Shown: piece after piece, positions 745 to 50,759 of the stretch
How the letters are laid out: each line of letters opens with the position of its first letter
Numbering within the stretch: position 1 is the first letter of the stretch
Origin: a virus
Lineage: Duplodnaviria; Caudoviricetes
Length of the DNA stretch: 56,794 nt
IMG/VR virus record: IMGVR_UViG_3300032308_002493
Location: 1 to 56,794 of that record
Reading direction: 5' to 3' (one strand)
Position numbers and translations under genes: made by a program
The notes under the pieces: generated by a model
Seen by the model: only the letters and a program-made list of their open reading frames with translations
Told to the model about the DNA's origin: nothing
The model's database searches: none

Positions 745-2094
745 GTGCCAGTGACGCATGAGTTGAGATTTGATCGGGGCTTGATTGCTCCGAATCGGAG
801 CTGGGAGAAAACCCCAGAGGGTTATATGCGGGTGCATGGCACTTTCGCCCGCACCGGCTGTCAGACCTACCGACGCCAGGACGGCAGCACCCAGGTGGAA
901 TATCGCCCAGAGGAGGAGGTGGCGCACCGCGATTCCATCCTCTCCCTGGGGGGGCTGCCGGTGACGCTGGAGCATCCGCCCACCCTGTTGACGCCCGCAA
1001 ACGCCCGCGAATACCAGCGGGGCAGCACCGGCTCAGAGGTGGTCTACGACTCGGGGTTTGTGAAGGGCACTGTCACCCTCACCGATGCGGCGATTATCAG
1101 CGCCGTCGAGCGGGGCGACGCGGTGGAGCTATCGCTTGGTTACCGGGTGGAAATTGACCACACCCCTGGCGTCGCCCCAGATGGCACCCGCTATGACGCG
1201 GTGCAACGCCACATTTCCGCAAACCACCTGGCGGTGACGCGCCAGGGGCGCTCCAACGGCGCCGGGGCTCCCGCCGGTGGCCGCCGGGTGGCCCTGCACC
1301 TGGATTCGGCTGAGATCACCGACTGGGCCGAGTCGGTGGACTGCCATCAATTTGATTCCCTATCTGCCCCGGAGGGCAACCACATGAGCACTGAATTTTC
1401 CAGTCGCAGCGATGGCCGCGGCCAAAAGCCCATGGCACCTGCCGCCATGGAAGAGGAGATGGAAGAGATGGAGGAGGTGATGGAAGAAGACCCCGATGCG
1501 GAGGGCATGGAAGAGGGGGAGATGGATCCTCCTGTGACCCCCAAGGCCAAGCGCCCCCCCGGTCGCCGCGACAGCTTCAGCAGCGACAGCGTTTCGCGTG
1601 CTGAATACGACCGGGTGCGCTCGGCCCTGACCGCCCGTATCTCACAACACGAAGCGGATCTAGGACGCCTCGATGCTTTATCCATCCGCCTGGATGAGCT
1701 GGAGAGCGAGATTGCTGATCAGCCAGGTGAGCGGCTTGATGCCGATCAATTCGATTCGCTGGTAAGCGAACGGGTGGAGCTGCTGGAGAAGGCCACCGCC
1801 ATGGCTGGTGAGCGAATTGATGCCGCCGGCAAAAGCGCCCGTGACATCCAGCTGGAGGCCCTGGATGCCATCGGCTACGACACCGATCGGCTGGATGGCC
1901 GAACCAACGAGTACGTGGCCGCCACCTTTGACGCCATGGCTGATCGGCCCGATGGCAGGCGGCTGGACAGCACCACAGCTCTGGCCCAGCTGTTGGGCCA
2001 GGCCGGCCGCCCCAGCGACAACGACGGACTGGCGGCCTACAAGGCGGCCACTGCCGCCGCTTCAACGCAGCCGCTGATGAATCACGCGGCCTGA
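745..2094 (+). CDS. DUF2213-family prohead protease/scaffold
   Basis: TPEGY, ARTG-Q-Y, EYRPEEEV, PVTLEHP, ELSLGY, YDAVQR-I-ANHLA motifs; acidic/coiled-coil C-terminus; upstream of capsid genes. Confidence 0.9.
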   Translation: MPVTHELRFDRGLIAPNRSWEKTPEGYMRVHGTFARTGCQTYRRQDGSTQVEYRPEEEVAHRDSILSLGGLPVTLEHPPTLLTPANAREYQRGSTGSEVVYDSGFVKGTVTLTDAAIISAVERGDAVELSLGYRVEIDHTPGVAPDGTRYDAVQRHISANHLAVTRQGRSNGAGAPAGGRRVALHLDSAEITDWAESVDCHQFDSLSAPEGNHMSTEFSSRSDGRGQKPMAPAAMEEEMEEMEEVMEEDPDAEGMEEGEMDPPVTPKAKRPPGRRDSFSSDSVSRAEYDRVRSALTARISQHEADLGRLDALSIRLDELESEIADQPGERLDADQFDSLVSERVELLEKATAMAGERIDAAGKSARDIQLEALDAIGYDTDRLDGRTNEYVAATFDAMADRPDGRRLDSTTALAQLLGQAGRPSDNDGLAAYKAATAAASTQPLMNHAA

Positions 2095-2137
2095 TCGCTA
2101 CGCGATTGGCCCTTAGCAAATCCACCCTGGAGATCGC

Positions 2138-2719
2138 ATGTCCCCCCTTGTTTTTACCACCAACGCATCATCTATTGATGATGGCGCTCAAATCAGCTAC
2201 CCGGCCCAGGCAGATCGAGGCTTGCCGGGCCAAATTGCCACCAGCGCACTCACCACCATCCTCACCGGCGCCAATGAAACCGGCAGCCGGCTTCTCTACG
2301 GCGTGCCGCTGGCTGTCAATGGATCGGGCCAGCTGCCCAACTCTGTAACCACTCGCACCACTGCAGGGGCCATCCTGGGTATCTCCGCCCGTACTGCCGC
2401 ATTTGAGCGCACTGGCCCCGATAGCTCGCCCGCCTATGCCGACGGCATCCCTGATGGCCGGGCCGTGAACATTCTCACCCGTGGGGTGATCTATCTCGAT
2501 GCTTGGGAAGCCATCGCTATTGGCACCAATCCGGCCGCACCTATCCTGCGTTATTTCAAATCCGGCACCAATATTGGCCGTTGGGGTGTCACGGCTAGCG
2601 CCGGCAACAGCCTGCTGCTGGCGGCTGGTGGCTGGGCCATCCGCAAAGCCGCCGCCGCCGGTGGTGTGGTGATGGTGGAAATCAACACCCCTGCGGCGCT
2701 GACTTTCACCGCCGACTAA
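2138..2719 (+). CDS. Head decoration/cement protein
   Basis: Lies between protease and major capsid gene; GLPGQIA, YGVPL, VNILTRGVIY pattern. Confidence 0.75.
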   Translation: MSPLVFTTNASSIDDGAQISYPAQADRGLPGQIATSALTTILTGANETGSRLLYGVPLAVNGSGQLPNSVTTRTTAGAILGISARTAAFERTGPDSSPAYADGIPDGRAVNILTRGVIYLDAWEAIAIGTNPAAPILRYFKSGTNIGRWGVTASAGNSLLLAAGGWAIRKAAAAGGVVMVEINTPAALTFTAD

Positions 2720-2763
2720 GAAACCGCCCGCATTCTTTTTTATTCAATCGCACTAATCCTCCA

Positions 2764-3705
2764 ATGGGCTACAGCCAAACCCGACAGGATGCCCAGGCCG
2801 CAGCCGGAGCGTTCCTTGAAAATGATCTGCGTCAGAAGCTCAGCAAGTCATTTGAGAAACTTTACCCGGAGTATCATTACGCCCGGATCGTCCCCGTAAG
2901 CTTTGAGTTGGACGAAGGCGCCGAAACCTATAAATATGATCTGTTTGATCGCGTAGGCGATTTTGATCTGGTGGCCGATGCTGCCGACGACCTGCCCCTT
3001 TCCGATGTGAAGCGCGGCGAGGTTGTCAACAGTATTCGCCAATTTGCTGGTGCAACAAAATACACCACCGATGAGGTGAGGAGGGCGCAATTCAGCGGAA
3101 TTCCGCTTCAGCAGCGCCGCATGGACGCAATGCGCATGGCCTATGAGGAGCGGATGCACCGCACCTGCCTGTTTGGCTATGCCGGCACCGGCCTCAAGGG
3201 CTTTTTCAATCACCCGGCCGTGGACCGCCTGGTGGTCACGGGCAGCGCCACTGACGGTTGGTTTGATGCGCCCAACATCACCCCAGATCAGATGAACTCC
3301 CTGCTCAATGAGGGGATTTCGTATCAGGGTAACTTGACAGGCATGGTGGAAAATCCGGATACGCTGCTTCTGCCCTATACCGATTGGCGCAGAGTCAGCT
3401 CTACCCCCAGAAGCAGCAACAGTGACACCACTGTGCTGGAGTTTTTTCTTAAAACCAACGGCACGATCAAGAACGTTGAACCAATCAACGAATTGGATCT
3501 CGGCAAGAGCTTTGGCAACCTGACCGCCAAGCGAATGATCTATTACAAGCGAGATCCGTCAAAGCTGGAATTTCATATTTCCATGCCGCTCAAGTTGCTG
3601 CCGGCGGAGCCCCGCAACCTGGCATTTATCGTAAATGGAGAATCAAAATCTGGGGGCTTTGCCCCCTACTACCCCAAATCGATCACCTACGTCGATAAGG
3701 GCTGA
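2764..3705 (+). CDS. Major capsid protein (DUF2184 family)
   Basis: GAETYKY, ADDLP, GLKGFFNHP, PDTLLLP, TTVLEFF, YYPKSITYVDKG; size and position. Confidence 0.9.
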   Translation: MGYSQTRQDAQAAAGAFLENDLRQKLSKSFEKLYPEYHYARIVPVSFELDEGAETYKYDLFDRVGDFDLVADAADDLPLSDVKRGEVVNSIRQFAGATKYTTDEVRRAQFSGIPLQQRRMDAMRMAYEERMHRTCLFGYAGTGLKGFFNHPAVDRLVVTGSATDGWFDAPNITPDQMNSLLNEGISYQGNLTGMVENPDTLLLPYTDWRRVSSTPRSSNSDTTVLEFFLKTNGTIKNVEPINELDLGKSFGNLTAKRMIYYKRDPSKLEFHISMPLKLLPAEPRNLAFIVNGESKSGGFAPYYPKSITYVDKG

Positions 3706-13562: not shown

Positions 13563-16500
13563 ATGCTCTCTCCCCGTCTATCCGATGATGATTCCGGCCA
13601 GTTGCTGCCGGAGGAGCGTGAGCTGCTGGAGTTGACCGGGCTCACGGAAGAACAATATTTCTGGTTTTTAAACCAACAGCGGGAAGCTGTTGTCCAATTA
13701 GCAGAAAGCGATGAACCTACAGCTTTTTTAGTGGTGCCATTTTTAATTTCCCTGGTGGTGGGGGCGGCACTTAACTACGCGCTAAGTGTCCTGCTGGCAC
13801 CCCAGCAGGCATCATCCAAGCCCTTCCGGGTGGAAAGCACCACGGTTGAGGGGCAGTCAATTGTTAATAACGCCAAGTTTGCGCCTAGCAGTGGATTTGA
13901 TTCACCGCAAAACGTTGTGGAGATCGGCAGCCTTGTGCCAGTCGTTTTTGCAAAACGCGAAACAATAGATGGCGTCACCTATGGTGGAGTTCGCGTAAAC
14001 ACAAATCTGCTTTGGAGTCAACTTTACTCGTTGGGTGACAGCCAGCTTTACAAGGGCTTGTTCATGGTGGGTGTGGCCGGCATTGGAGCTATTGACCCAA
14101 CGCAGGTAGCCATTGGTGACAACGTGCTTACCTCCTACGACCTGGCTCCAGCCGGCAATACTACTTCCAGGGCCTCAATCTATTACCAAAATGCCGGCCG
14201 CCGCTTGCGGGCCAGTGATTTTATTGCTGGCCGCATTCCGGCTAGTGATATTGCCAACTCAGAAAATGCAGGCGCCGCCGACCTGTTTCAAATTCGCGGG
14301 CCCAATGGCCTTTGGAGCAATTCTTTTTGCTACGCAAGCGCACCTAGCAATCAAACCGTATTTGGCCTATACGCGCCTATTGGCAATGAGCTGGGAATCA
14401 AGGTCAACCCCCGAGTTGAGCCTATGTATCGGGGCCAAACGCAAGCTGCAGGGCAAAAATTTGATCGCACTTATTTTGTATGCAAAATAGACCCCCAAGC
14501 TTACCTCAGACGAATCAAGCAGAATCAAGTCTATAGCAGCCGTAGCGGCTTTGTTGGGGTCTACGACAATCAGGGGGGCCTGGCTTCCACGGTTTCGGGT
14601 GAAGTGCGCACGGTGCTAAAAGACCAGTCAATACTGTTTTACATGTCCGCTCAGGCTGATAACACTTCGGCGTGGTCCTACGACAGCGGTGATCAGACAA
14701 GCACCGCTGACGCTGTTGACATAGCCCAGAGTATTGCGGGCCGTCAGCGCAGTTGGGACGAATCCTTAACTTTGGGCAGTCTATACAAATGCGGTAGCGT
14801 TGTGCTAGTGCTGGTGGGCCGCAGTCCGGCAACGGCTCCATTTAGTAGCCGCATGGACCAATCGCCTCCAGGCGGCGGCACTGACGTTTACTACACGTTC
14901 AAGGCCATAAAAGCCGGCGTGATGATGTTTAGCGAAACGGCTAAGATCAATCGCAGCGCCTTGAGCAGTGCGGCGCCTTACCGCAATGGCACAAACGGCA
15001 GCCACCTGTATCGCTTGGCGGTGGCAACGTTTGCGATGGCAAGGCCAGGGCAGGTAATCGAAATTGGCTACAAGGTGAGTGCATCATTGCGCTATGGGGG
15101 CTTGTGCAATTTTGCCGCGTCGGAAACGACGACTTTTGCAGACAACAACGGATGCCTCTATTACAACAACATCGAATTAACAAGGTCCGGGCGGACAATC
15201 CAGACATCGCAATACACTTCTGGCACTATTCAGGCGCCTGGTGTTCGTTACGTGGTTTCGCGGTTATCGTTCAGGGTGATGGGCGCTGCTGAATGGGTTG
15301 AATTTCCCCACTTATTGGTATTCAAAGGAGCCGGCGGCAGCGAAAACCGCGATTACATCCGTTTACAGCTACCAAGCTCAGAGCTCTATGAGTTCAGCCA
15401 AATGCCGGTAGACGGATGGGAGGTGCGCAACGGTTACGCTCAGGGGCAGCTGTGCCTAATTGACGCAAGCCAAGCCAGCCTGCAGGTGGCCTACGGTGCC
15501 GGGGCCACGATTGAATTTAACGGTAGCTTCCTTGGCCGCAATCAAGCTACATTTTGCTTGCCTCCCACCCAAACCAACAAAGATCTAGGCATTGCCAACT
15601 ACGAGCTAGGGGACAATGGTATCTTCTCGTATGTTGACGCCTGGGGCTGCATTGCCAACATCTTTGGGCACGAAGAAATAAGTATTTCCAACAGTTCTCC
15701 AGAGTGCCAAATTGCCTATGTCAACACTATCGAGCCAAACCTCGTAGCGCCTAGCTACGCTGGTCTCACTACCATGGGGCTAACGCTTCGCAGCTCTACC
15801 GAGTTTCAATCTGCACAGCAAGTAAGTGTTTACATAAATCAGGGATTTGCCAACACTCATTTAATTGGCTCAGTGCTGAGGATCCTAGCCACCAATTCCG
15901 AGTTCGGCCTCGGAGAGCGAATAAGCCCTACCGCTATTACTGCGTCTTTTGACGAAGCGGACGAATGGACCTACGCTAACCGTTATTTTTTTGATGGGGC
16001 AATATCGGAGCCGGCTAATTTCAGAGTAAAAGGGGCCGAGCTGGCTAATTACTTTCTGCTCGAATTACTGGCCAAGGGCTCTCAGTTCTATCTGCAGCCA
16101 ATCGCCGATCCGGCGGTGCGCTACGAGCCAATGGCTATGTATACCAGTGGCAATGTCTTTAAAATTAATTTTGCTGTTTTTGAGCCGGAGCAGCGCACAC
16201 CACCCATCGTGCACGTTCAGTGGCGCCAAGAACGTCAAAGCTCTACGCCTGGCAACTTGGGCTTATTTCCGGTGATCCGGCAAATCGCTGTTCGAGAGGC
16301 AAGCACGCCAGAAACTGCGCCAATAATAACAATTGACGCGACTGCAAAATTTATGACATCAGAAAGGCATGCAATAGATTTGGCCAAAATGGAATGCCGC
16401 AAACGCCGCATTATTACCTGCGGCGCTCAGCTAACCACTCGGCCGGATGCTGCCTATTTTGAGCCGGGGCGTATTGTAAAACTGGCTGTGCAGTTGTTGC

Positions 16501-19903: not shown

Positions 19904-20154
19904 TCCAACAGATCCTTGGCGGCATCACAGTTGGCCAGCTGGCCGCGGCGGTATTTGGCTTGACACTGATTGCCCGCTGTGAGTTAGGCCCTCAGCCGCC
20001 TGGGGGCTGGATTGTTTGCTGGCTAGCGGGTGGGTTGGTAGCTAAGGTGCCGGGCCTGGCGCAAGCTGCGCAGCAGATTGGCTACCTAAAAGGCTACAAT
20101 ACCTACAATCCAAGCCTAAAGGAACCGCAGACAACCGACCGCCCCGTGAGCTAG
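19900..20154 (+). CDS. Small membrane protein, putative holin
   Basis: Two hydrophobic segments; ATGA overlap with the previous gene. Confidence 0.5.
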   Translation: MIQQILGGITVGQLAAAVFGLTLIARCELGPQPPGGWIVCWLAGGLVAKVPGLAQAAQQIGYLKGYNTYNPSLKEPQTTDRPVS

Positions 20155-20157
20155 GCC

Positions 20158-20502
20158 GTGAGCAGCATTACCGCGTTCCGATACGATTTTCGGCCAATCA
20201 AGAAGGGGTTTGATTTTGGCTGGGAGTTTTACTGGTATGACAGCGAAGGATCATCGCTAAACCTTGCCGGGTCCATTATCAGCTGCGTAGTGTGGGACCG
20301 AAAAAAAACAAACGTTTTAGCTACGCTGGCAACGCAATACATTAGCCAGATGCCGGGCCACACCAGCCACGGACTAACAAATGAGCAAACCTCCATACTG
20401 GATGGAGCATTGCCCTACGAGTTGCGGTTGCAGGAGCCTGACGGCGCATTGCATTGCTACATGGATGGCCTAATGCCGTTTGTCGATTTTTCACCTCCAT
20501 GA
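20158..20502 (+). CDS. BppU-like baseplate/fibre adaptor domain protein
   Basis: IKKGFDF, LNLAG, LTNEQTS-L, YELRL pattern. Confidence 0.6.
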   Translation: MSSITAFRYDFRPIKKGFDFGWEFYWYDSEGSSLNLAGSIISCVVWDRKKTNVLATLATQYISQMPGHTSHGLTNEQTSILDGALPYELRLQEPDGALHCYMDGLMPFVDFSPP

Positions 20503-20654
20503 TTGGCCCTGTTGTCCCCACTGCTGTACAGGTGATCGAGGCATCAACGACGCCACTGGTGCTGAATTTGATTGTTCCAGGTAAGCAGGGGCCGCCAGGC
20601 ATGGGGAATATAGCCCTCACCGTAGGCCTCATCGTTGCCCTGGGCCGCCGCTAA
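20499..20654 (+). CDS. Small collagen-motif structural peptide
   Basis: PGKQGPPG followed by hydrophobic GLIVALGRR; ATGA overlap. Confidence 0.55.
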   Translation: MIGPVVPTAVQVIEASTTPLVLNLIVPGKQGPPGMGNIALTVGLIVALGRR

Positions 20655-20662
20655 TTTCTAAC

Positions 20663-22351
20663 ATGATTATCACTTCAACTGGCTACACGTTCAACCCAGC
20701 CAACAAAACGGTTACATTCAACACAAGCACGGGGCAGCCTCTGCCGCCTTCGCTGGAGTCTATTCTTACGATTGCAAATTGCAGCAGTTCAAACAGCAAA
20801 GGCGAGCGGCTGTTGTATCAGCCGCAGGCCGGGGATGATCTCAGCGGCAGCTGGAATAGTGCCACATCTACGCTTACCCTGGCGGTCAATTGCGCAGGGA
20901 TGCAAAGCAGCGATCGGCTGCAAATCCTGTTTGAAGACCAAGCAGCCTTGAAGGTTAATGTAGTTGCTGCAAGCGCTGGGATTGGCGGTTCTGCCACGTC
21001 TACCAGCGAGTTGCAAGCGGCGGGCAACCAATTACTGACGTCAATTGATAGCCGAGTAGGCACCACCGGCAGCGGAGCTCCTGCTTTGCCGACTGACGCC
21101 AGCGGTTTGACAGGGCTGGTGCAGGTGTTTTATCAGGCGCTGTTGGATAGGCTGCCGGCGACACTGAGCGGCGGCCGGCTGCAGGTGGCGCCGTCTTTGG
21201 CGGCTGATGCCGCCACGGCCACCAATCAGAATATTATTAACAATTGCCTGGGCACCACTAATAGTTTGCTTTCTGAGGTAAGTAGTGATCTCTCAGACTT
21301 AAATAACTTTGTTAGTAACCCGGTAGAATGTGGCTCTAGTGAGGGACTTTTAATGCCTGAAGGGTCTAGTCCGGACCCACTTAACCCTTATGGAGCTGCG
21401 CTACAAACTACCCTGCGGGATCCAATCCAGCTTGATCAATCTGTACCAGCTGTGATTGGCGGTATAGATCCCACTGGAGCAGCACAACGCGCCCGAGTAG
21501 GACGTGACGGTGGTTTACAGCTCACGGACGGACCTACGTTCACCGGTACTACTGCTGTTGCAAACAGCAGCCCAACGGGTTGGATTGATACGACAGGGTA
21601 TCAATCTATAGTTGTGACATTTAATGCTAGTTTTTCAGGTGGTTCAGGTGTTCTAAGGTTTCACACTACTAATGATATTAGCGCTTCAACTAACACTTTA
21701 ACTAACGCTAGCGGTTGGCCTACTACGGGAGCTCCAACGCCTGCTGCCAGCTTGTCTGGTGCATCTGCAGGTACGACTTGGGTATTTCCTGTAACAGCTA
21801 AATGGTTCAGGCTTGCAATCGGAACGCTCACGTCAGGATCTGTATCTGTAACTGTAACCTTGCGTGCCGCTCCTGCTGTATTTATACCTCTTGCGTTAGC
21901 CGTTGGTGGTGTTGATTTTAGTGCAACAAACCGCACGCTAATAACCGACACTGTTGGCTATCAAGCCATGGTTGGGGCACTACCTGTAGGTTTTCAGGTA
22001 GGGACGTTCAACGTCAACTACGGCAGGTTCACCCAAGCCTTAACCTCACAAACCGCAGCCCAGTCCAACCCTGCGCCATTGATGATAGGAGGCATCGACA
22101 GCGCAAACGTGGCACGGGCTGCGCTGACTGATAGCCAAGGTGCTATGATGGTAACGCCATCATCTTCTACGCAAGCAGCTCAATCACAAGATGAGCTGTT
22201 GTATCAGATCCTTGCTACACTAAGAACGCAATGTCACTATCTGTACGAAATAATGACAGATAGTACAGGAAGGTCTGCTAGTGATGAACCCGATACACTA
22301 ATTGGGGAATACATGAACCAGGCCAACCAGTTTAAAAATTTCACCAATTAA
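20663..22351 (+). CDS. Tail fibre-like protein
   Basis: YTFNPANKTVTF...LTL...DRLQI N-terminal domain; Ser/Thr/Gly-rich; visibly more AT-rich than the flanks. Confidence 0.7.
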   Translation: MIITSTGYTFNPANKTVTFNTSTGQPLPPSLESILTIANCSSSNSKGERLLYQPQAGDDLSGSWNSATSTLTLAVNCAGMQSSDRLQILFEDQAALKVNVVAASAGIGGSATSTSELQAAGNQLLTSIDSRVGTTGSGAPALPTDASGLTGLVQVFYQALLDRLPATLSGGRLQVAPSLAADAATATNQNIINNCLGTTNSLLSEVSSDLSDLNNFVSNPVECGSSEGLLMPEGSSPDPLNPYGAALQTTLRDPIQLDQSVPAVIGGIDPTGAAQRARVGRDGGLQLTDGPTFTGTTAVANSSPTGWIDTTGYQSIVVTFNASFSGGSGVLRFHTTNDISASTNTLTNASGWPTTGAPTPAASLSGASAGTTWVFPVTAKWFRLAIGTLTSGSVSVTVTLRAAPAVFIPLALAVGGVDFSATNRTLITDTVGYQAMVGALPVGFQVGTFNVNYGRFTQALTSQTAAQSNPAPLMIGGIDSANVARAALTDSQGAMMVTPSSSTQAAQSQDELLYQILATLRTQCHYLYEIMTDSTGRSASDEPDTLIGEYMNQANQFKNFTN

Positions 22352-22366
22352 TTTAGGAGTTTTTCA

Positions 22367-23008
22367 ATGATTATTCAAGGTCAAGCTGGTGCTTTGCCAT
22401 CATCTCGTCAGTCCGCAGGAACACCGAACGCTCCGGCTGGAACGTTTGGTGAAATCCTCGACTCCAGACTCAATCCCAACTACTACCAGCTAGTCAAAAG
22501 CGGGCGTGTGTTTCAGGTTGGCGCTGCAGCCGCCAACCCCACCGCTTTTTCAGGGGGGGCTGCAGGTACTCCGCTGATTGGATTGTATAATCCAGTCAGT
22601 AGTGGTGTTGATTTAGTTATGCTTCAAGCTCGTTTGGGTATCAGGACTACTGGTACTGCGGCAGCTAACCTGGACTTCGCCTTTTTTGGTGTAAACCAAG
22701 GTGGTGTTGTTGTTACCGGTACACAAACTGCTTCCCGTAACCTTTACTCACTAGCTGCAACGGGCGGTGCAGGTTATGCAATGGTCAACGTTGCAAACAC
22801 TGCGGCGTTGGCTTCTGCTCTTCTTGCCCCTGTATTCACACTAGGTGCCGTAGGTGCTACAGCTGCGCCTATTGGCGGTGTGTTTGTAGATGACATTCAA
22901 GGTTCTGTTATCGTGCCTCCGGGTGCTTACCTTGCGTTAGGTGCTACGGCTGCTTTGACTGGTGGCTCCCTTGATGTTTCACTGATGTGGGCTGAAATAC
23001 CTGCATGA
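22367..23008 (+). CDS. Structural/receptor-binding accessory protein
   Basis: LYNP-SSGV-LV, IVPPG, W-E-P end; good RBS (AGGAG). Confidence 0.65.
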   Translation: MIIQGQAGALPSSRQSAGTPNAPAGTFGEILDSRLNPNYYQLVKSGRVFQVGAAAANPTAFSGGAAGTPLIGLYNPVSSGVDLVMLQARLGIRTTGTAAANLDFAFFGVNQGGVVVTGTQTASRNLYSLAATGGAGYAMVNVANTAALASALLAPVFTLGAVGATAAPIGGVFVDDIQGSVIVPPGAYLALGATAALTGGSLDVSLMWAEIPA

Positions 23009-23034
23009 TTTAGGTACTTAACACTTCAGTCGGG

Positions 23035-23065
23035 AAGCCTTAGGGTTGCTAACCTAGGGCTTTTT
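23035..23065 (+). terminator. Rho-independent terminator
   Basis: AAGCCTTAGGGTT-GCT-AACCTAGGGC followed by TTTTT. Confidence 0.7.
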
Positions 23066-23104
23066 GCTTAAAGCACAGTCAAGCCTCGTCAAAGGTACAG
23101 TATC

Positions 23105-23425
23105 ATGAGCGCAATTCAACAACTAACTTCTGCTAGCCAGAACAAACAAGCTGCCCTCACAGTTTTGTCAATGGTTGGTAGTCAGCACGCAGCGTTGCTG
23201 AAGGCATGGCAGGATGCTATGGATGTGATTTGGGATTCGCCTGATCCAGCAGGTATTATTGCTGAATTGGGTAATCGTGCGGCAGCGTTGTTTGAGATTT
23301 CGGCTCAAACTTGTGTATTTTTAGAGTCAATCGAACCAGGTTGCAATTTGGACCGGCGTTTAAAAATATGGCCTCATACTATTCACTCAGACGGCTCAAT
23401 TACTGTGGTACCTCCTCCACGCTGA
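23105..23425 (+). CDS. Hypothetical protein, possibly fibre-associated chaperone
   Basis: Clean ORF with a decayed paralog at 23587-23948. Confidence 0.7.
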   Translation: MSAIQQLTSASQNKQAALTVLSMVGSQHAALLKAWQDAMDVIWDSPDPAGIIAELGNRAAALFEISAQTCVFLESIEPGCNLDRRLKIWPHTIHSDGSITVVPPPR

Positions 23426-23586
23426 TTGGTTTATCAAAGTGCTACTATAAACCAAGGGTTAGCCTTATTTTATGCTTAGCGTTACCGTTCCCAATGCTAG
23501 CACCCATGCTATTCAGGGAATTGTGATCACCGCTGGGACTGGCGGCACTACAAGCCTGAATTATGTACTTCTGAAAGGTTTTTAAC

Positions 23587-23948
23587 ATGAACACGATCCA
23601 ACGCCTGGCCATCAATGCCCACGCAAGAAACATGGCACTAGAAGTGCAGAACATAGCACTTACTTCGCTGGGTTCCATGTTAAGTGCATGGCAAACGGGA
23701 ATGGATAAGATTTGACGTAGCGGCGACCCTGCAGCAACGGTTGCGGAGTTAGGAAATACAGCGGCGGAAATGTTTGCGCTGTCAAATGACTTATGTATTT
23801 TGCTGGAAAATACAGTCCAGGTTGTACTTCTGAACGAATGCAGCTGATGGCCCCTTGGCAGGTCGAGTTACATTTTGATGGCACGGCCACTATTGTTCAA
23901 TTGCCTGAACCGGAGCCTGATCCAGGCAACGGTGAGCCAGCGGGCTGA
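23587..23948 (+). pseudogene. Decayed paralog of 23105-23425
   Basis: MNTIQRL...AWQTGMDKI*RSGDPAATVAELGNTAAEMF...[frameshift]...PGC...HFDGTATIV aligns to the upstream protein; TGA at 23713 replaces Trp; 1-nt loss at ~23807-23810. Confidence 0.8.
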
Positions 23949-23989
23949 CAATCAAGCAGCAAAAAAGTCTGCAGTAGCTTTTGCTGGCA

Positions 23990-24865
23990 TCAATAATCCC
24001 AGACAGCCGCAGGCTGGCGGCCAGCACCAGGCACAAAACCGCCGCCGCCTCGGGTGTCAAGGTGAATGAATCCCTTGTTACGGCCATCGCCAAGGCCGCC
24101 AGTCCACCGCCCATAGATCCAGCTGTAAAATTCGTCCAGCGATCGATCAATGGGGTAAACGTCCATTGCGCAGCCGGCCCGCACCAGGGCCTCGGCGGCG
24201 GCGGCGCAGTCGGCCACCTGGCGGTTGATCGGCTCAGGGCGGTAGAAGCTGGTAACCCCCAACGGGCCGCCCCAGGCCCTGCGCACCGCATCAAACTGGC
24301 GGGCCGTATTCAGCAGCCGGCCAATGTCCCCACTGTTGGCCGGGGGGCGACGGCGCAGATCAAACTGCAGCACCTCCCCCACCGTCAGGTAGAAACCCAC
24401 CAGGGCGCTGAAATCGCTCCAATCAATTGGCCAGCCAAGAACCCCAAGCCCCTGCGGCGCTGAAAACGCTCCAGGTGATGCCGTTGGCAGCTTCTGAAAC
24501 CCCTGCCAATGGGGCTGCCAGATGATCCAGGTGCCAGCACCGGCAGCCAGCTCCACCTCCACATGGGCGGTGTGAGGCAGCTCAGTGACGGCCACCACGC
24601 CAAAACGCTGCCCGCTGGCCACGGCCAACTTCTGCCCGGTTGGCAGCTCATCGGCGGGGGCCGCAAGTTTCTTGAGCCAGGTATCAGCCGTGGCTGTGAT
24701 GGTCAAGAACGGCTTAGCCGCCCCTGAAGCCAGGGCCGGGGCCAGTCCCTGGCTCTCGCCCTGATTCACAGCCGGCTCATTGGTACTGTGTCCGGCCTGG
24801 GTCTGGTCTTCCGCCGCGCTGGGGCGCGGTGCCTGGGGGGCATTGGCCGGGGGGCGTTTGCTCAT
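23990..24865 (-). CDS. Endolysin-like M15 peptidase with cell-wall-binding domain (active site looks altered)
   Basis: DTWLKK...W-PHW domain; VTSFYRPEPINRQV...AMD...FIHLDTR. Confidence 0.8.
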   Translation of the reverse strand: MSKRPPANAPQAPRPSAAEDQTQAGHSTNEPAVNQGESQGLAPALASGAAKPFLTITATADTWLKKLAAPADELPTGQKLAVASGQRFGVVAVTELPHTAHVEVELAAGAGTWIIWQPHWQGFQKLPTASPGAFSAPQGLGVLGWPIDWSDFSALVGFYLTVGEVLQFDLRRRPPANSGDIGRLLNTARQFDAVRRAWGGPLGVTSFYRPEPINRQVADCAAAAEALVRAGCAMDVYPIDRSLDEFYSWIYGRWTGGLGDGRNKGFIHLDTRGGGGFVPGAGRQPAAVWDY

Positions 24866-32753: not shown

Positions 32754-32932
32754 TGCCATACAAACGACCTGAATTTAGAAACGCGCCTCAAATTGTCACC
32801 GTGCAACGGGCGTTGTATTTAATTGCTGAGCAAGAATTGGCAAGGCAACAGCAAGCCGAGCTGGCGCTAGCTGGGCAGCAGTCGCAATTTGATCTGGAAC
32901 GAATTGGGGCCGCCTTGGTACAAAATCTCTGA
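32753..32932 (+). CDS. Small 59-aa ORF not in the track
   Basis: TAATG coupling; MPYKRPEFRNAPQIVTVQRALYLIAEQELARQQQ...; overlaps the integrase 3' end. Confidence 0.35.
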   Translation: MPYKRPEFRNAPQIVTVQRALYLIAEQELARQQQAELALAGQQSQFDLERIGAALVQNL

Positions 32933-34222
32933 TACAAAATGCAAAAACACTGGCCGCAGCAATTCATCAGGTGCGTGGCTTAGCGCCTCTGGTGAGCGGA
33001 ACAGTTCTTCGTAGAGACCTGGCCAGGTCTCTGCTGGTAGCGCTTGCATCGTGATGATTTGATCCCTGAGCCGAACGATCGAGGTTCCTAGCCCCGTCAC
33101 CCCCTGATCCTGCAGCTGCTCCAATTGCGCCAACTGCTCGCGGTACGTCAGCAGCTCGGGGCATTCCACATCCGGTGGTTCGGCCCCTTCAATCGCCAAC
33201 CGGGCCAGGCGCGGCGCTGCGCGGCGCACCAGCACATCAATTACTGCCGATCGCAGCGTGTCTTCTCGCACCCCTTTCCCCACGTAACAGCAGCCGGGCC
33301 GTTTGCAGGCATATCGCGCCACGCCAGGGCCGTGGACATTTGGTTTCTGGTGCCATTGCAGATTTTTGCCGCACCCCTCGCAGCGAATCAGGCCGCTAAA
33401 TAGATGCCTAACACTGGCGGCTCGTTGCATTGGGCCCTGGCTGCGGGTTTCCAGCTGCCGCCTAATCAGCGTCCATTCAGCCGGTGAGATCAGCGGAGTG
33501 GTGCGACCCCATTCAATTTCTGTGTAGTCCTGCGTGCCGCTGGGGGCTCCCCGGCCAAGCCCGCCGCGCAAGATCGGATTATGCAGCCAACCGGTTAAAC
33601 CCTGAGATGAGTATTGCCTTGGAAAATCAGCAGGCAAGGCCGTCAGTGTTGCGTAGATATTGCATTCGTGCTGAATGATCAACTCAACCAACTGCCTGGC
33701 TGCAGTCCAGGTAACAGGTGATGGCACAACCTGCCCGTCAACGTGGGCATAGCCAAACGGCACAGGCCCCCTGCCTGCATAACCTGCCTCCCGCCGCCGC
33801 CGGATGCCATCGCGCACCTTGATGCTGATCATGCGGGAGGTCACGCGATTCATCACGCTCATCACCCCGGTAAGAGCGAGCCCACCCACCGTTTGGTTCT
33901 CCAGCACCATCCCCTGCAGATCAGCGACCGTGCAGCCGGCGCAATGGCATTCCTCTAGAAAATCCTGATCAGATCCGTCTCGCGCCAATCGCGACAGGTC
34001 TACCACCAGTACCTTGGCCACCAGCCCCTTGGCCACCAGGGCCCTTAATTCTTCCCACCCCGGCCGCCGCTGGCCTGAGTAAGCGCTCCCGCGTTCCACA
34101 ATCACGCGATCGCAGCCAGCCTGCTGCATGTCCCATTGCTGCCCCTCTACGGAGGTGTCTTGCGCCTCCTTGCCGGTGCTAACGCGCACATATCCAATGA
34201 CTAAGCGGCCTGGACGGTCCAT
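32867..34222 (-). CDS. Large serine recombinase (integrase)
   Basis: GYVRVST catalytic Ser, SAYSG-RRPG, DLSRLAR, PFGY, and zinc-ribbon C-x2-C...YAC. Confidence 0.95.
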   Translation of the reverse strand: MDRPGRLVIGYVRVSTGKEAQDTSVEGQQWDMQQAGCDRVIVERGSAYSGQRRPGWEELRALVAKGLVAKVLVVDLSRLARDGSDQDFLEECHCAGCTVADLQGMVLENQTVGGLALTGVMSVMNRVTSRMISIKVRDGIRRRREAGYAGRGPVPFGYAHVDGQVVPSPVTWTAARQLVELIIQHECNIYATLTALPADFPRQYSSQGLTGWLHNPILRGGLGRGAPSGTQDYTEIEWGRTTPLISPAEWTLIRRQLETRSQGPMQRAASVRHLFSGLIRCEGCGKNLQWHQKPNVHGPGVARYACKRPGCCYVGKGVREDTLRSAVIDVLVRRAAPRLARLAIEGAEPPDVECPELLTYREQLAQLEQLQDQGVTGLGTSIVRLRDQIITMQALPAETWPGLYEELFRSPEALSHAPDELLRPVFLHFVSEILYQGGPNSFQIKLRLLPS

Positions 34223-36440: not shown

Positions 36441-37904
36441 ATGGTATCGCTGATTGTTCGGCCGCCCAGCATCGTTGATTGGTATTCACCGGATCCGCTG
36501 ATTGGTGGCCCGGCCAAGGCCCAGCCCTGGGAGTCGCTGCCTGGGAAGTGGCCAGATTTTGCGGCGCAAACCCAGATCGCGTCGGGTGGCCGGCACATTC
36601 CGTTTATACCCTTTGCCGCTCAGCGGGAGCTGATAAAAATACACCGCAAGGTGCAAAACGTCTATGTACTGAAGAGCCGGCAGATTGGCATTTCCGAAGT
36701 GATAATCAATTACAAGCTTTGTCAAGCCTGCCGCCGGCCGGCCTGGACCGGTGTGGTGTTCTCCAAAACGGGCGATGACGCCAGCGAGCTGGCAGCCCGC
36801 ATCAAAGGGCAAGCCGCCTCGCTCCGCGATCGGTGCCCCAAATTCGCCAAAGATTCAGCCAGAAAGCTAGTTTTTGAAGGCTTCGGCTCGCTCCACTTCC
36901 TGCCCCCCACCGAGCGGGCCGCCAGGGGTATCCCCTCTGCTGCCTCGATCCTGTTTGACGAAGCGGCGTTCATCTCCAAGCTTGCCGGTATTGAGCAGGG
37001 CGCCCTGCCCTCCACTTCGCTGCTGGGCGACTTTGCCCGCCACCTGTGGGTCACAACCCCCAACGGCCGCAGCGGCACCTTCTCCGACCACTGGCACGCA
37101 GACCACGGGGAAGTGGTGGTGGACCCCACCCCCATGGGGGTTAATGGCATCCCCAGATTGCGCATCTCTCCCGACAATCAATACGCCAAGGTTTGTATTC
37201 ACTATTCCCAGCATCCGGTTTACGGCGTGGATCCGGATTGGGCAGAAAAGTTTCGCCGCAAGCGTCAGCTCAGCCAGCAGCAATGGCGCAGTGAATTTGA
37301 ACTGGATTTCACCGCTTCTGACTACGAGATATTTGCCCACGATCTGATTGAAGCCGCAGAGGCGGCCGGGGGCTGGGATGCCCCCACCTGGGGCCACAGC
37401 TATGTGCTGGGCATCGATCCCAATGGCGGTGGCGGCGATGCCTTCTGCGGCCTGGTGCTCGATGTAACCGAGAGCCCTTGGCGGGTGGTGGCCGGGTTCA
37501 ATGAATCTGGCTGCAGCCGCGACTACGGCCTGCAGCGCTGCGCCAGGCTGATTGATGAATACGGCCCCACGCTGGTGGCCGTGGAAAAAAACGGCGTCGG
37601 GGCGGCAGTGGCGGAGGCCCTGTGTCTACTGCGGCCCGGCACTGAGCTGGAGGAGATCTACACACTTGGCCCCAACAAAATCACAATGACCGATCGGCTG
37701 GTGTTGCTGCTGGAGCAGGGCGAGCTCACCATCCCACCCAACAGCTATGTGGGCAGCGAGATGCGCAATTTCCGCCAAACAGAAAAGGGCGACCGCAAAG
37801 CCGCCCCAGGTCACCATGATGATGCGGTAATGGCCCTGGCCATGGCCGGGCAAGCCGGCGCCAGGATCAGGCCCCTAACTAACAGCTGGATTTCAATGAT
37901 TTAG
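36441..37904 (+). CDS. Terminase large subunit
   Basis: LKSRQIG Walker A, ILFDEAAF Walker B, TPNG, LGIDP, HDDAVMALA. Confidence 0.95.
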   Translation: MVSLIVRPPSIVDWYSPDPLIGGPAKAQPWESLPGKWPDFAAQTQIASGGRHIPFIPFAAQRELIKIHRKVQNVYVLKSRQIGISEVIINYKLCQACRRPAWTGVVFSKTGDDASELAARIKGQAASLRDRCPKFAKDSARKLVFEGFGSLHFLPPTERAARGIPSAASILFDEAAFISKLAGIEQGALPSTSLLGDFARHLWVTTPNGRSGTFSDHWHADHGEVVVDPTPMGVNGIPRLRISPDNQYAKVCIHYSQHPVYGVDPDWAEKFRRKRQLSQQQWRSEFELDFTASDYEIFAHDLIEAAEAAGGWDAPTWGHSYVLGIDPNGGGGDAFCGLVLDVTESPWRVVAGFNESGCSRDYGLQRCARLIDEYGPTLVAVEKNGVGAAVAEALCLLRPGTELEEIYTLGPNKITMTDRLVLLLEQGELTIPPNSYVGSEMRNFRQTEKGDRKAAPGHHDDAVMALAMAGQAGARIRPLTNSWISMI

Positions 37905-41068: not shown

Positions 41069-41188
41069 GGCCTGCTTTAACGCAACGCACCATGAATATA
41101 TTGCGGCTGCATCCCGGCTGCAGGATAAAGCGACGGCGGCGTGGTTTTATCCGCCCCGCTGCCTAGCCTGGCCCAGGCGCCATTCCCC

Positions 41189-43219
41189 ATGTCCGGTCAA
41201 TCCCCTCCATTGCTAGAGGAGCGCAACGATGGCGTGTTGATCAATGCGCTGACGCGCATGGGCACCAGCCGTGACCGCTCCAGCTACACGGCCATAGCTC
41301 CAGTTCGCTTGCTGCAAGAGGAAGAGCTGGACAACCTCTACGTGAGCAGTTGGCTTTGCCGTCGGGTGGTGGACCTGGTTGCCAGTGAAGCCACCAGGTC
41401 CGGCTGGGGTATCGCCGTGGGAGGCGATGTGAATGAGGCCCAAAAAAAGCGCCTCGACAAACTGGTATCGGCCGGGGAAAGCCTGGGCATTCGAGATCAT
41501 GTGCGCGAGGCCTTGCGCATGGCACGCCACCATGGCGGGGCGGTGATTGTGCTGTTGCTCGACGACGGGCTACCAATCAGCAAGCCCGTGGATCCCAAAC
41601 GGCTGCGCTCGATTCGGGGCCTGTACGCGATGGATCGCTGGCGCATCTGGCCTGCCCCTGGTTGGTCTGGGGTGGGCGCACCGGATCGTTATCAATTTGT
41701 TGTATATCAAGACGACGATTTGAAGCGAGCGGGAATGGATGAGCAGGAAATAGGGGTGCCAATTCATAGTTCCCGTTTGCTGCGCTTTGACGGCGACCCC
41801 CTGCCCCCCAGGCTTAAAGGCCAGAACAACTGGTGGGGCGTGTCTGTGCTGCAGAGCCTCTGGGAGGTGTTTAAACGATATGAAACCGGACAGAAAAGCG
41901 GATCGGCCATCCTCGACGATTTCAGCCTTTTTGTGCAAAAAATAAAGGGTTTAGGCCAGATGGTGGCCAATGGGAAGGAGGCGGCAATTCAGGCCCGGCT
42001 GGAACTAAACGGCCTATGCCGGTCTGTGTTGGGAGGCATTGCCATCGATGCCGACGGCGAGGACGTTGCCTGGATCACCCGATCCCTGGGGGGCATCGAT
42101 ACGGTGATCGGCAAGCTGGAAACGGAAGTGCAGGGGGCCTCCAGGATCCCCCACACCAAGCTCTGGGGCGCGTCCCCCAGCGGTCTGGGGGCCAATGGCC
42201 GATCAGAGGATGCCGCGTTCGCAATGGAGGTGGGCCAGCAGCAGCAGGATCATTTGGATCGGCCCCTGCGCCGCTTTTACGAGCTGCTGGCTGCCTGTTC
42301 CCGCGGGCCCGCAGCCATGGAGCTGCCAGAAGACTGGAAAATCGATTTCCACGACACCTTTGTGCTTTCGGATTCAGAGGAAGCCGAGCTGCGCTCCAAA
42401 CAAGCAACCACAGATACCGCCTATATCAGGGAGCAGGTGATCACACCTACGGAGGTGGCGCTGGCTCGATTCAGCGGCGCCAAATTCTCCATGGAGACCG
42501 TGCTGCTCAACCGGGAAGCGGATGGCTCCATCCCCCAGCCCGATGAGGGCCCCGGCCCCGATTTTGGTGGTGACCTGGAATCGGCAGACACCACCGGCGG
42601 CGACCCAGCCAGCGGTGATACCCCCGATGAGCCCACCGCTCCAGCCGCATCAGCGGCGGCCGGCACCGCCGAGCTCACGCCAGAGGAGCAGGCCGCCGCG
42701 GCCAGGGGTGACGGCCTGGCAGGCGCCAGCGATCCCCGAGAGGATGGCTGTTGCTCCGCCTGCGATGAAGAGGTTGCGCAGCAGCAAAAAGACACCTCCG
42801 CACCGGAGGAAGAGCCCATCCCGGATGACGGCCAGGCCCTGGCTGCGGCCATCGCCCAGCGGATTGCCAAGCCCGGCAGCGCTCGGCGCCGCGGCAGGCG
42901 GGCTGGTGTGCGGGCCGATGGGGCTCGAATCACCGGCCGGCGGGTGGTGGCGGGCGTGCCGCTGGAGGTGCGGGCCGATGGTTCCGCCGCCCTGGTGGGC
43001 CCCTACGGCCAGCCAATTGCGAGGCTGAATGCAGCGGTAGGTTTTGACAGCGAGGGGCTGTGGGAGGTGCTGGGAGCTGGCGGCCAGTGGTGCGCTGTGG
43101 TGGGAGTGAACGATGCCGAGCTGGTGAGCACCGCGGCAGGGGCCAGCGCCCGGGTGAGGCGGCTGGATGGACTCGATTTGATCGCCATGGGTGTGAGGTG
43201 CGACAGCTATGGGAATTGA
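41189..43219 (+). CDS. Portal protein (DUF1073-like) with long C-terminal extension
   Basis: LY--SWL-RRVVD--A-EATR, IHSSRLLRFDG, WWGVSVL, IPHTKLWG-SPSGL-A-G; acidic extension. Confidence 0.9.
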   Translation: MSGQSPPLLEERNDGVLINALTRMGTSRDRSSYTAIAPVRLLQEEELDNLYVSSWLCRRVVDLVASEATRSGWGIAVGGDVNEAQKKRLDKLVSAGESLGIRDHVREALRMARHHGGAVIVLLLDDGLPISKPVDPKRLRSIRGLYAMDRWRIWPAPGWSGVGAPDRYQFVVYQDDDLKRAGMDEQEIGVPIHSSRLLRFDGDPLPPRLKGQNNWWGVSVLQSLWEVFKRYETGQKSGSAILDDFSLFVQKIKGLGQMVANGKEAAIQARLELNGLCRSVLGGIAIDADGEDVAWITRSLGGIDTVIGKLETEVQGASRIPHTKLWGASPSGLGANGRSEDAAFAMEVGQQQQDHLDRPLRRFYELLAACSRGPAAMELPEDWKIDFHDTFVLSDSEEAELRSKQATTDTAYIREQVITPTEVALARFSGAKFSMETVLLNREADGSIPQPDEGPGPDFGGDLESADTTGGDPASGDTPDEPTAPAASAAAGTAELTPEEQAAAARGDGLAGASDPREDGCCSACDEEVAQQQKDTSAPEEEPIPDDGQALAAAIAQRIAKPGSARRRGRRAGVRADGARITGRRVVAGVPLEVRADGSAALVGPYGQPIARLNAAVGFDSEGLWEVLGAGGQWCAVVGVNDAELVSTAAGASARVRRLDGLDLIAMGVRCDSYGN

Positions 43220-49979: not shown

Positions 49980-50759
49980 GTGCCATCCGCCACTGAATTT
50001 GACCGTCAACACCTGGCGGCATCACGCAGCTACCTGAAGGCCTTCTACGGCTGGAGCGGTGCCCGGCTGGATGGGTTTCTGGCTGTGGAGCAAGGCCTGG
50101 TGCGCTTTGATGCACCCAAAAGATGCACCAAGGGACTCGCCTGCGGCAACACTTGCATCGCGCAGGGCCGCACCTGCAGGGCCAAGGGCAACCCGCAGAA
50201 AACCGCCCGGCTCAAGCAACTGCTGGCCTTGCCTGCTGCTGGCCAGAGCAGTGCGGGAGCCATGGCCAAGGGCAGTGGGGGCAATCAGGCAAGCACTCCG
50301 GCCAAGGCTGCAGGCAAGCCCGCCAAGCGCGAAACCATTGCTCAATTACAAAAACCCGTCCTTGATTACTTCAAGGTGAAAACCGTTCAAGAACTAAAGA
50401 CAAACAAAGATTTCCTGATGGCAATTGGAGACGCTGACTCCAGGCAGGCAACCGGCAAAGGTGTAAAGATTGACTTTAAAAAGCGAGAGACATGGGCCAA
50501 GCTGCACCGTGAATTTGCCGGGGTGCCAGCCTCTGAGCGGAACCTGAAAGATGGCGGCAGCGTAATCAGAGGCGTTGACGTAATGAAGAACTTCCGCCCC
50601 TGGCACACCTTCAACCTAGACCCTAAAAAAGCCACGCCACAAGACATCAAGCGGGCTTTTAATCAGCTGGCCAAGACCTACCACCCAGACCAGGGCGGTG
50701 ACCGCAAAGTGTTTGAGCGGCTGATAAAAATGCGCGATTCGTTGTTGGCGCTTCGCTGA
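49980..50759 (+). CDS. Cys4-module protein with C-terminal J-domain (DnaJ-like)
   Basis: RFDAPKRCTKGLACGNTCIAQGRTC; PW-TFNL...DIKRAF--LAKTYHPDQGG. Confidence 0.85.
   Translation: MPSATEFDRQHLAASRSYLKAFYGWSGARLDGFLAVEQGLVRFDAPKRCTKGLACGNTCIAQGRTCRAKGNPQKTARLKQLLALPAAGQSSAGAMAKGSGGNQASTPAKAAGKPAKRETIAQLQKPVLDYFKVKTVQELKTNKDFLMAIGDADSRQATGKGVKIDFKKRETWAKLHREFAGVPASERNLKDGGSVIRGVDVMKNFRPWHTFNLDPKKATPQDIKRAFNQLAKTYHPDQGGDRKVFERLIKMRDSLLALR

Follow-up and report, generated by a model that had tools for sequence, protein, structure and literature searches.

A basic-x-Asp motif as a candidate cleavage signal of a DUF2213 head maturation protease in an uncultured tailed phage

The gene at positions 745 to 2094 of IMG/VR virus record IMGVR_UViG_3300032308_002493 encodes a head protease fused to its scaffold and contains repeated copies of the short motif R-x-D-[AGS]. 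The question raised by this locus is whether the motif is the cleavage code of the protease. The record, an uncultured phage (Duplodnaviria; Caudoviricetes), is a linear stretch of 56,794 bases with an estimated completeness of about 80%, and was analysed in full as the window. The best explanation of the data, to which a probability of about 0.75 is given, is that [Arg/Lys]-x-Asp is the signal read by the DUF2213 head protease, which would cleave behind the Asp, in most cases ahead of Ala, Gly or Ser. From the placement and conservation of the motif we infer that the scaffold would be dissolved and the polyproteins diced in this phage; every cut in it, the removal of the scaffold and above all the dicing of the cargo are predictions from sequence.

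Motif counts in head and cargo proteins

The genes concerned are given below (strand in brackets; aa, amino acids; E, expectation value).

745-2094 (+): protease-scaffold fusion gene, 449 aa (Pfam PF09979, PHROG 530)
2138-2719 (+): cement (decoration) protein (Pfam Phage_cement, E 1.8e-17)
2764-3705 (+): major capsid protein (PF09950; Pfam E 4e-48)
41141-43219 (+): portal, 692 aa (Pfam Phage_portal_3, E 1.4e-64)
43209-44738: MuF-like head protein
49980-50759 (+): open reading frame (ORF) of 259 aa adjoining the cargo genes on their upstream side, with a weakly J-domain-like C-terminus
50839-55560 (+): multi-domain cargo protein, 1573 aa
55954-56793 (+): second cargo gene, incomplete at the right end of the contig

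The initial annotation had reported about ten motifs in the protease-scaffold. Eleven R-x-D-[AGS] were counted, at residues 44, 123, 149, 221, 274, 308, 330, 357, 382, 401 and 406, and all motifs listed there were found. Composition predicts 0.97; none of 5000 whole-protein shuffles reached 11, nor did any of 1000 shuffles within blocks of 30 residues, which keep local composition (mean 1.07, maximum 5). The portal contains eight, against 1.29 in whole-protein shuffles (0 of 5000) and 1.13 in 30-residue blocks (0 of 1000), with RNDG at residue 28 near the N-terminus and six copies in the C-terminal extension, as annotated. The large cargo protein also has eight, against 1.82 (whole-protein shuffles, fraction 0.0004) and 1.88 (blocks, 1 of 1000). 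Enrichment over a composition-matched background, the lack of which had been named as a refuting outcome, stands in both kinds of shuffle. The capsid protein carries two motifs, the annotated N-terminal one (RQDA at 7-10, within TRQDA) and RMDA at 119; the second cargo gene has one (RIDA at residue 17), the 259-aa ORF two (0.3 expected) and the cement protein none (0.15 expected).

None of eight control motifs (reversed, R-x-E, K-x-D, D-x-R, two re-spaced forms, non-small P1' and R-x-N) exceeds expectation in the protease-scaffold, portal or cargo, and none reaches a fraction of 0.05; R-x-E-[AGS] is found zero times in the scaffold, zero times in the portal and twice in the cargo. When 1200 residue pairs at spacings 1-3 were scanned without bias, R-x-D came out as the top pair in the protease-scaffold (13 against 3.46, p 7e-5). 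For a comparison between functional classes, 59 ORFs were divided into three groups whose borders are our own choice. The seven head and cargo genes contain 30 motifs against 5.52 expected (Poisson p 3e-13), the 19 neck and tail genes five against 3.90, and the 33 other ORFs four against 6.39. The suggested contrast of head and cargo with tail and replication genes is borne out by these counts, and the by-eye impression that the motif is sparser in tail proteins agrees with a neck and tail class near expectation. One short motif is common to scaffold, capsid N-terminus and packaged proteins and near expectation in the tail, as in gp21-type systems; the motif observation is confirmed.

The DUF2213 family, capsid, portal and protease fold

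Searching 1.84 billion cluster representatives without a profile yielded 9390 matches at E up to 0.001, and family motif statistics were computed on the 150 best of these 9390 DUF2213 matches. These 150 relatives contain 1243 copies of [RK]-x-D-[AGS], where composition predicts 187.6 (6.6-fold; 6.15-fold against 30-residue block shuffles), with at least three copies in 145. The reverse motif (0.75x), the Glu form (0.64x) and the form with non-small P1' (1.16x) are not enriched, and D-x-R and re-spaced motifs do not exceed expectation either. In the scaffold parts, with 3023 Asp residues examined, P3 favors Arg (3.65x), Lys (1.7x) and His (2x), P2 Phe (3.8x) and Leu (1.8x), P1' Gly (2.0x), Ser (1.8x) and Ala (1.5x), and P2' Tyr (2.6x); around the 3011 Glu residues no enrichment exceeds 1.9x. 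The motif is a trait of the DUF2213 family and is Asp-specific. The protease-scaffold of Synechococcus phage S-CBS4, the closest isolate by capsid protein (46% identity), contains six motifs against 1.2 expected, and the S-CBS4 capsid has a 7-residue leader ending in R-M-D.

The anchor of this reading is the capsid N-terminus.

2782-2793 (+): motif of the predicted capsid cut after Asp9 (HMMER alignment to T1 gp47)

The capsid protein matches the solved T1 capsid structures (E 3e-32), and its R7-Q8-D9-A10 is aligned residue for residue on T1 K24-Q25-D26-A27. The T1 cryo-EM capsid model is described as spanning 'residues 27 to 319' (PMC11945409), residue 27 being the Ala directly behind K-Q-D. 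For TLS, ASDMGIW is reported as the Edman N-terminus of the major virion protein (PMC11447400), which maps to capsid residue 33 with K-N-D just ahead (TLS record 15072-16061). By alignment, one mapped cut (TLS) and one structural N-terminus (T1) fall on the motif at the homologous capsid position. The exact capsid N-terminus is absent from the accessible part of the Rogue1 paper. T1 gp50 and TLS gp33 are DUF2213 proteins with 11 and 12 motifs in their scaffold parts (1.13 expected in T1 gp50); the 27 other T1 proteins are near expectation with no more than three each, a 1172-aa tail protein having three against 1.9. Together with the T1 and TLS N-termini and the 6.6-fold enrichment of the family, these counts support the idea of an Asp-specific head protease put forward in the initial annotation. 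When the capsid was compared with 73 homologues (30-94% identical), R-x-D was present at the aligned N-terminal position in 69 of the 74 sequences, and the 69 occurrences within the first 15 residues compare with 7.4 expected.

The portal sites are as follows (nt, nucleotide).

nt 41222 (+): N-terminal site RNDG, aa 28
nt 41783 (+): core site RFDG, aa 215
nt 42704, 42737, 42911, 42971, 43160 and 43196 (+): extension sites, aa 522, 533, 591, 611, 674 and 686

A search with the protease sequence alone gave only two close related loci, neither with a portal match, and portal conservation was for this reason examined on database homologues: the phage portal and the 120 best of 125 matches (121 sequences, 36-95% identical). 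In this set the N-terminal part contains 113 motifs against 11.6 expected (9.7x) and the C-terminal extension 435 against 59.6 (7.3x), whereas the folded core contains 21 against 94.2 (0.22x, about 5-fold depleted). The sites recur at position 28 in 111 of the 121 sequences, at 522 in 76, at 591 in 106, at 609/611 in 79, at 674 in 78 and at 686 in 54. Enrichment in the tails and avoidance in the core would be the expected outcome of selection by a resident protease, the core looking as though accidental cuts there were disfavored. At E up to 0.1 no Pfam domain was found in the portal extension. PF20106 is present in the extension of many portal homologues, one of them being named 'anti-CBASS Acb1 family protein' by NCBI, and the Pam3 portal C-terminus has two H-x-[TS] motifs with a by-eye likeness to 2H phosphoesterases. 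Portal extensions of this phage group may carry enzymes.

Features within the protease-scaffold are the following.

745-1269 (+): protease domain, aa 1-175 (alignment, AlphaFold2 (AF2) model and Foldseek)
874-1200 (+): three sites inside the folded protease domain, nt 874, 1111 and 1189 (aa 44, 123 and 149)
1405-1971 (+): eight linker and scaffold sites, nt 1405, 1564, 1666, 1732, 1813, 1888, 1945 and 1960 (aa 221, 274, 308, 330, 357, 382, 401 and 406)

Residues 21-170 match PF09979 (E 1.5e-38; score 132.8 bits, cut-off 22; covering positions 2-158 of the 167-position profile), the protein matches PHROG 530 'head maturation protease' (E 4e-73), and its Pfam membership is DUF2213 only. In an alignment of 101 sequences His77 (nt 973), Ser130 (nt 1132) and His161 (nt 1225) are invariant and are the putative catalytic residues; Tyr42, Arg54, Tyr133, Gln154, Asn160 and Arg169 are also invariant. 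The invariant arginines are putative ligands of the P1 Asp. The AF2 model of residues 1-196 is confident up to residue 168 (mean predicted local distance difference test score 86.6). Its top Foldseek matches in the PDB are three T4 gp21 chains (5jbl; E 3e-5 to 8e-5, probability 1.0, template modelling (TM) score 0.51-0.61), followed by the proteases of Kaposi's sarcoma-associated herpesvirus (KSHV) and Epstein-Barr virus (EBV) with probabilities of 0.9-0.99. A PDB sequence search with the protease-scaffold gave no meaningful match, and the relation is seen by fold search. Model and Foldseek matches agree in the gp21/assemblin fold, and the domain is probably a serine protease of this type with a His-Ser-His active site.

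The full-length AF2 model has strands to residue 165, disorder at 178-231 and 247-278, and helices at 285-441; the disordered linker is acidic and the scaffold part helical. The eight linker and scaffold sites are predicted self-cleavage sites. For seven of their eight P1 Asp residues coil or disorder is predicted, two of the seven being placed just ahead of a helix, and sites 308, 330, 382 and 406, together with one near 357, recur among 69 aligned relatives. R8 and D10 of the protease (nt 766-774) are at least 90% conserved, R-x-D occurring there in 63 of 69; they lie in the first predicted beta-strand, with Arg following in the phage studied here. This element could be structural, a pseudo-substrate or a self-cut site.

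Taken together, the following course of maturation is proposed. The product of 745-2094 would be a head-maturation serine protease of gp21/assemblin fold, fused to its own scaffold and active inside the procapsid. It would chop the scaffold part at about eight sites, so that the pieces can exit the shell. The capsid protein would shed its first nine residues and begin, when mature, at Ala10, while in the portal one cut would fall close to the N-terminus and others would break up the C-terminal extension. In the packaged cargo the cuts would lie a short way ahead of each Cys module, a freed fragment presenting the Cys module first and then an enzyme domain (zincin-like, ADP-ribosyltransferase-like or other). 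Short leaders ending in R-I-D would be removed, akin to the T4 capsid-targeting leaders of internal proteins.

Cargo proteins and alternative readings

The sites and modules of the cargo genes and of the adjoining ORF are listed here.

nt 50881, 51082, 51190, 52480, 52534, 53956, 53971 and 53998 (+): eight motif sites in the 1573-aa cargo protein
51226-51279, 52558-52611 and 54022-54075 (+): three Cys modules in the same protein
56026-56079 (+): Cys module of the second cargo gene, behind a 19-aa leader ending in R-I-D and an Ala
nt 50064 and 50103 (+): RLDG at residue 29 and RFDA at residue 42 of the 259-aa ORF

The Cys module has the pattern C-x2-G-Y-x-C-G-x2-C-I-S-L-x2-E-C. Seven of the eight cargo sites are N-terminal or at most 30 residues upstream of such a module, and the stretches 150-540, 600-1035 and 1090-1573 contain no motif. 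Motifs had been annotated at domain boundaries of the cargo proteins; the sites were found, except that RFDA belongs to the 259-aa ORF and not to the cargo. This ORF matches Pfam DnaJ at E 1.1e-5, under the curated cut-off, and is possibly a further head cargo.

Within the 1573-aa cargo only the C-terminal zincin-like domain (residues 1450-1553, nt 55000-55560, with H-E-x-x-H) reaches Pfam significance (a weak match to Peptidase_M90, E 1e-6); a lethal-factor-type domain family matches the same C-terminus at E 2e-5, under the cut-off. Residues 196-527 match PHROG 21. At E up to 0.1 no Pfam domain was found in residues 1-120 and 569-1056, and residues 121-568 gave one weak match (E 0.078, under the curated cut-off). 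The zincin-like domain could be a self-processing peptidase or an effector.

A search for small proteins with the cargo leader and module, made with the 90 N-terminal residues of the second cargo gene, gave only two homologues, both near-identical (89-92%). The homologue in one relative is a 310-aa protein (ORF 1926-2858) matching Pfam ADPrib_exo_Tox (E 8.7e-6), and the gene upstream of it in that relative has LPD1 and a zincin-like motif. At this locus (1-2858) a 644-aa ORF ends within a truncated Cys module, and the ADP-ribosyltransferase gene follows in another frame and begins with a full leader and module; the repeat may here have been the place of a recombination event or a frameshift.

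Viral contigs were scanned for the Cys module with a degenerate DNA pattern, which retrieved 86 stretches, of which 80 loci were taken, giving 43 distinct contexts. R-[IL]-D-A stands in one fixed register in 31 of the 43, nine of these 31 having a second site seven residues further upstream. In one more context a site is present at another offset; in the other 11, R-[ML]-D lies further upstream and is succeeded by F, Y, R or A. Several modules open genes behind a leader of about 12 residues, and others are internal junctions, a pattern that would fit leader removal together with junction cutting.

The DNA copies of the module at 52522-52622, 53989-54102, 55999-56106 and 51235-51282 are 77-88% identical. 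On the minus strand, positions 1-150 hold the beginning of another gene with leader and Cys module, running off the left end of the contig. Given pieces of module genes at both contig ends and the similarity of the copies, the record probably breaks or is mis-joined at this repeat.

We tentatively suggest, as a possibility, that R-x-D site and Cys module form a portable 'address-and-cut' cassette, an enzyme behind it being packaged and then freed by the head protease. Being a 77-88% identical DNA repeat, the cassette might also serve as a recombination joint at which cargo effectors are swapped, fused or split, and the portal extension might be a further released payload. Consistent with such a cassette, these modules delimit single genes in one relative and mark internal polyprotein junctions in the phage studied here.

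For the cargo alone, the alternative is that it is processed by its own C-terminal zincin-like metallopeptidase, or not at all, and that R-I-D-A is a conserved part of the Cys module. The zincin-like domain sits at the end of the cargo, and domains of this kind are proposed to self-process in polyvalent proteins (PMC5512222); the fixed register of R-[IL]-D-A in 31 of 43 contexts is also what a structural element would show. It is nevertheless rather improbable: the same junctions carry extra sites outside the module (RRDG 548, RGDG 1040 and RLDA 1045), nine of the 43 contexts elsewhere have a second site, stand-alone cargo genes begin with short leaders ending in the motif, and scaffold, capsid and portal are marked by the same motif.

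[quoted passage not shown] It could account for the many repeats in flexible regions, for a motif that precedes a conserved Cys module, itself a possible head-targeting element, and for the protease R8-x-D10, which is nearly invariant yet in a predicted beta-strand. We regard docking as clearly unlikely. The TLS Edman N-terminus lies exactly behind the motif Asp, and its aligned counterpart is the first residue of the T1 model; a preference for small P1' (6.15x, with 1.16x for other residues) is what a requirement at the scissile bond typically looks like, and the depletion in the portal core is more easily explained as avoidance of cuts.

That the enrichment is a functionless side effect, arising from composition, helix capping, the periodicity of salt bridges or internal repeats, is very improbable. 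Arg, Asp and Ala are indeed frequent in the largely helical scaffold, two P1 Asp lie just ahead of a helix start and the cargo copies are repeats, but block shuffles never came above 5 against 11 observed, the reversed, D-x-R, R-x-E and re-spaced motifs show no excess in the phage or in the 150 best relatives, and the signal is Asp-specific, with positions conserved in portals and Lys replacing Arg in T1 and TLS. Helix capping and composition were rejected as explanations on the results of control motifs and block shuffles.

Cleavage after Asp in [Arg/Lys]-x-Asp by the DUF2213 protease remains the preferred reading, and several points weigh against it. Basic P3 is not universal within DUF2213: E217 gp23, a DUF2213 protein, has no [RK]-x-D-[AGS] (0.98 expected), and Pam3 gp5 has three against 1.89, not an enrichment. 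E217 gp23 has four A-x-D-[AGS] against 0.96 expected, and the E217 capsid model begins at residue 66, two residues past A-M-D; of the capsid N-terminus the E217 paper states only that the first 65 residues are not visible. In this light sampling, P1 Asp may be general in DUF2213 while P3 differs by lineage. Of the R-x-D-[AGS] code as originally formulated, the Asp rule is supported, P3 is to be read as Arg or Lys, and other lineages (E217, Pam3) differ.

The anchor itself comes from distant relatives, the capsid being about 27% identical to those of T1-like phages (tblastn), and the capsid cut in the uncultured phage is predicted by homology to TLS and T1. The start of the T1 model could reflect disorder and not cleavage, Edman data being those of TLS only. 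The TLS paper's own figure of 45 residues removed conflicts with its Edman sequence, which maps to a removal of 32 (PMC11447400). At the capsid site P1' is less restricted (A, G or S in 20 of 69 sequences; T, N, D or E in 49), and the predicted capsid propeptide among relatives is only 5-9 residues long. The MuF-like head protein has no motif (0.6 expected).

Motif copies also occur in folded regions where cutting is unlikely: protease 44, 123 and 149, capsid 119 and portal 215. The three protease sites lie in a turn, after helix 115-123 and at the start of strand 152-165 of the AF2 model, and are probably structural rather than cut sites because of their conserved fold positions (G47 invariant, D151 nearly invariant). 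The capsid residue 119 motif, present in 32 of 74 sequences, and the portal residue 215 motif are likely structural as well, so that a motif copy is not automatically a cut site. D310, in site 308, lies in the middle of a long predicted helix. In the cargo, R-I-D-A is part of a conserved repeated module; its copies are for that reason not independent counts, and a cut site and a structural role are inseparable by conservation alone.

Genome context and comparison with known systems

The remaining features of the window are the following.

reaching about 23 kb: neck and tail genes
32867-34222: serine recombinase
36441-37904: large terminase

The serine recombinase gene suggests that the phage is temperate, and the database names of its relatives indicate picocyanobacteria. 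The order protease-scaffold, cement, capsid is the same as in the head modules of T1, TLS, Pam3, E217 and S-CBS4, and the DUF2213 gene has the position between portal/MuF and cement/capsid; in the linear record the portal, MuF and cargo genes sit at the opposite end from the protease-scaffold. A DNA-level search of the phage collection with 745-3705 gave no match, and relatives emerged from the protein-level search. At 20000-24000 the G+C content drops to 0.49-0.53 against about 0.6 elsewhere, and the ORFs 20663-22351, 22367-23008 and 23105-23425 have a third-position G+C of 0.36-0.46 and no family match; this region may have been acquired recently, as a block of distal tail or host-range genes.

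Among the papers listed on prohead and maturation proteases, Asp and cleavage, no published Asp rule for phage head proteases was found, nor any description of family specificity among those listed on DUF2213. The Pa193 paper regards the homologous protein purely as a scaffold, cleavage being said there to be undecidable, and the Pam3 paper makes no mention of protease or cleavage. DUF2213 proteases are common, as the 9390 cluster representatives indicate, and include those of T1-like coliphages and of therapeutic Pseudomonas phages of the E217/Pa193 group. A simple sequence rule, if true, would make the mature capsid, portal and scaffold products predictable from sequence, allow unassigned cryo-EM densities to be better interpreted, guide semi-specific searches of existing virion proteomics data, and make packaged cargo (candidate anti-defence effectors) recognisable by its leaders.

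The T1 and TLS papers report the capsid N-terminus and, in their accessible parts, state no motif (PMC11945409, PMC11447400). These T1-like coliphages (T1 gp50, TLS gp33) share with the present phage the DUF2213 protease-scaffold, Phage_cement and PF09950 capsid families, the order portal, MuF, protease-scaffold, cement, capsid, the motif density of 11-12 per protein and the alignment of the capsid cut site with R-Q-D-A. They differ in that P3 is mostly Lys and not Arg, the capsid peptide removed is 26-32 residues long by the published N-termini against a predicted nine, the portals are short (T1 portal, two motifs against 0.9 expected), and no Cys-module cargo polyprotein is found among the annotated T1 or TLS genes.

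The cargo may be comparable to the polyvalent proteins of Iyer et al. (2017), which are multi-domain and head-associated, with zincin-like peptidase and ADP-ribosyltransferase domains; the large cargo described here has the zincin-like domain, and the relative mentioned above has LPD1 and a separate ADP-ribosyltransferase gene. The polyvalent proteins are proposed to be processed mainly by their own metallopeptidase domains, and a term search of that paper did not return 'cysteine' (PMC5512222). The junctions described here differ in carrying the motif of the head protease and a repeated Cys module.

The motifs cut by phiKZ gp175 and SPN3US gp245 end in Glu. Motif-directed cutting of many head and ejection proteins is reported for both (PMC10052503, PMC7411985). 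These enzymes belong to another protease family, and their sites were mapped by mass spectrometry, whereas the present phage is known from sequence alone.

Like the herpesvirus assemblins, the DUF2213 protein has an N-terminal protease fused to a C-terminal scaffold, the same fold (KSHV and EBV matches), and invariant His, Ser and His in the same order. Assemblin, fused to its scaffold and with a Ser-His-His triad, cuts Ala-Ser sites and not after Asp; there is no sequence-level relationship.

T4 gp21 has the same fold (5jbl being the best PDB match) and the same logic, in which one short motif is common to capsid, scaffold and packaged cargo including an ADP-ribosyltransferase. Its substrates are gp23, the scaffold core, internal proteins with capsid-targeting leaders, and Alt, and it cuts after Glu in [L/I]-x-E. 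The phage studied here differs in having Asp with basic P3 in place of Glu at P1, the feature of gp21-type systems that it lacks, in its protease being fused to the scaffold, and in showing no family match at the sequence level. Because the signal is at Asp only and R-x-E is not enriched, it would be a variant of motif-directed head maturation, with Asp and basic P3, that stands outside the Glu-type systems. If true, an Asp-specific enzyme would be placed beside the Glu-specific and Ala-Ser-specific ones among the head proteases that share this fold, and the basis of P1 choice would become directly testable.

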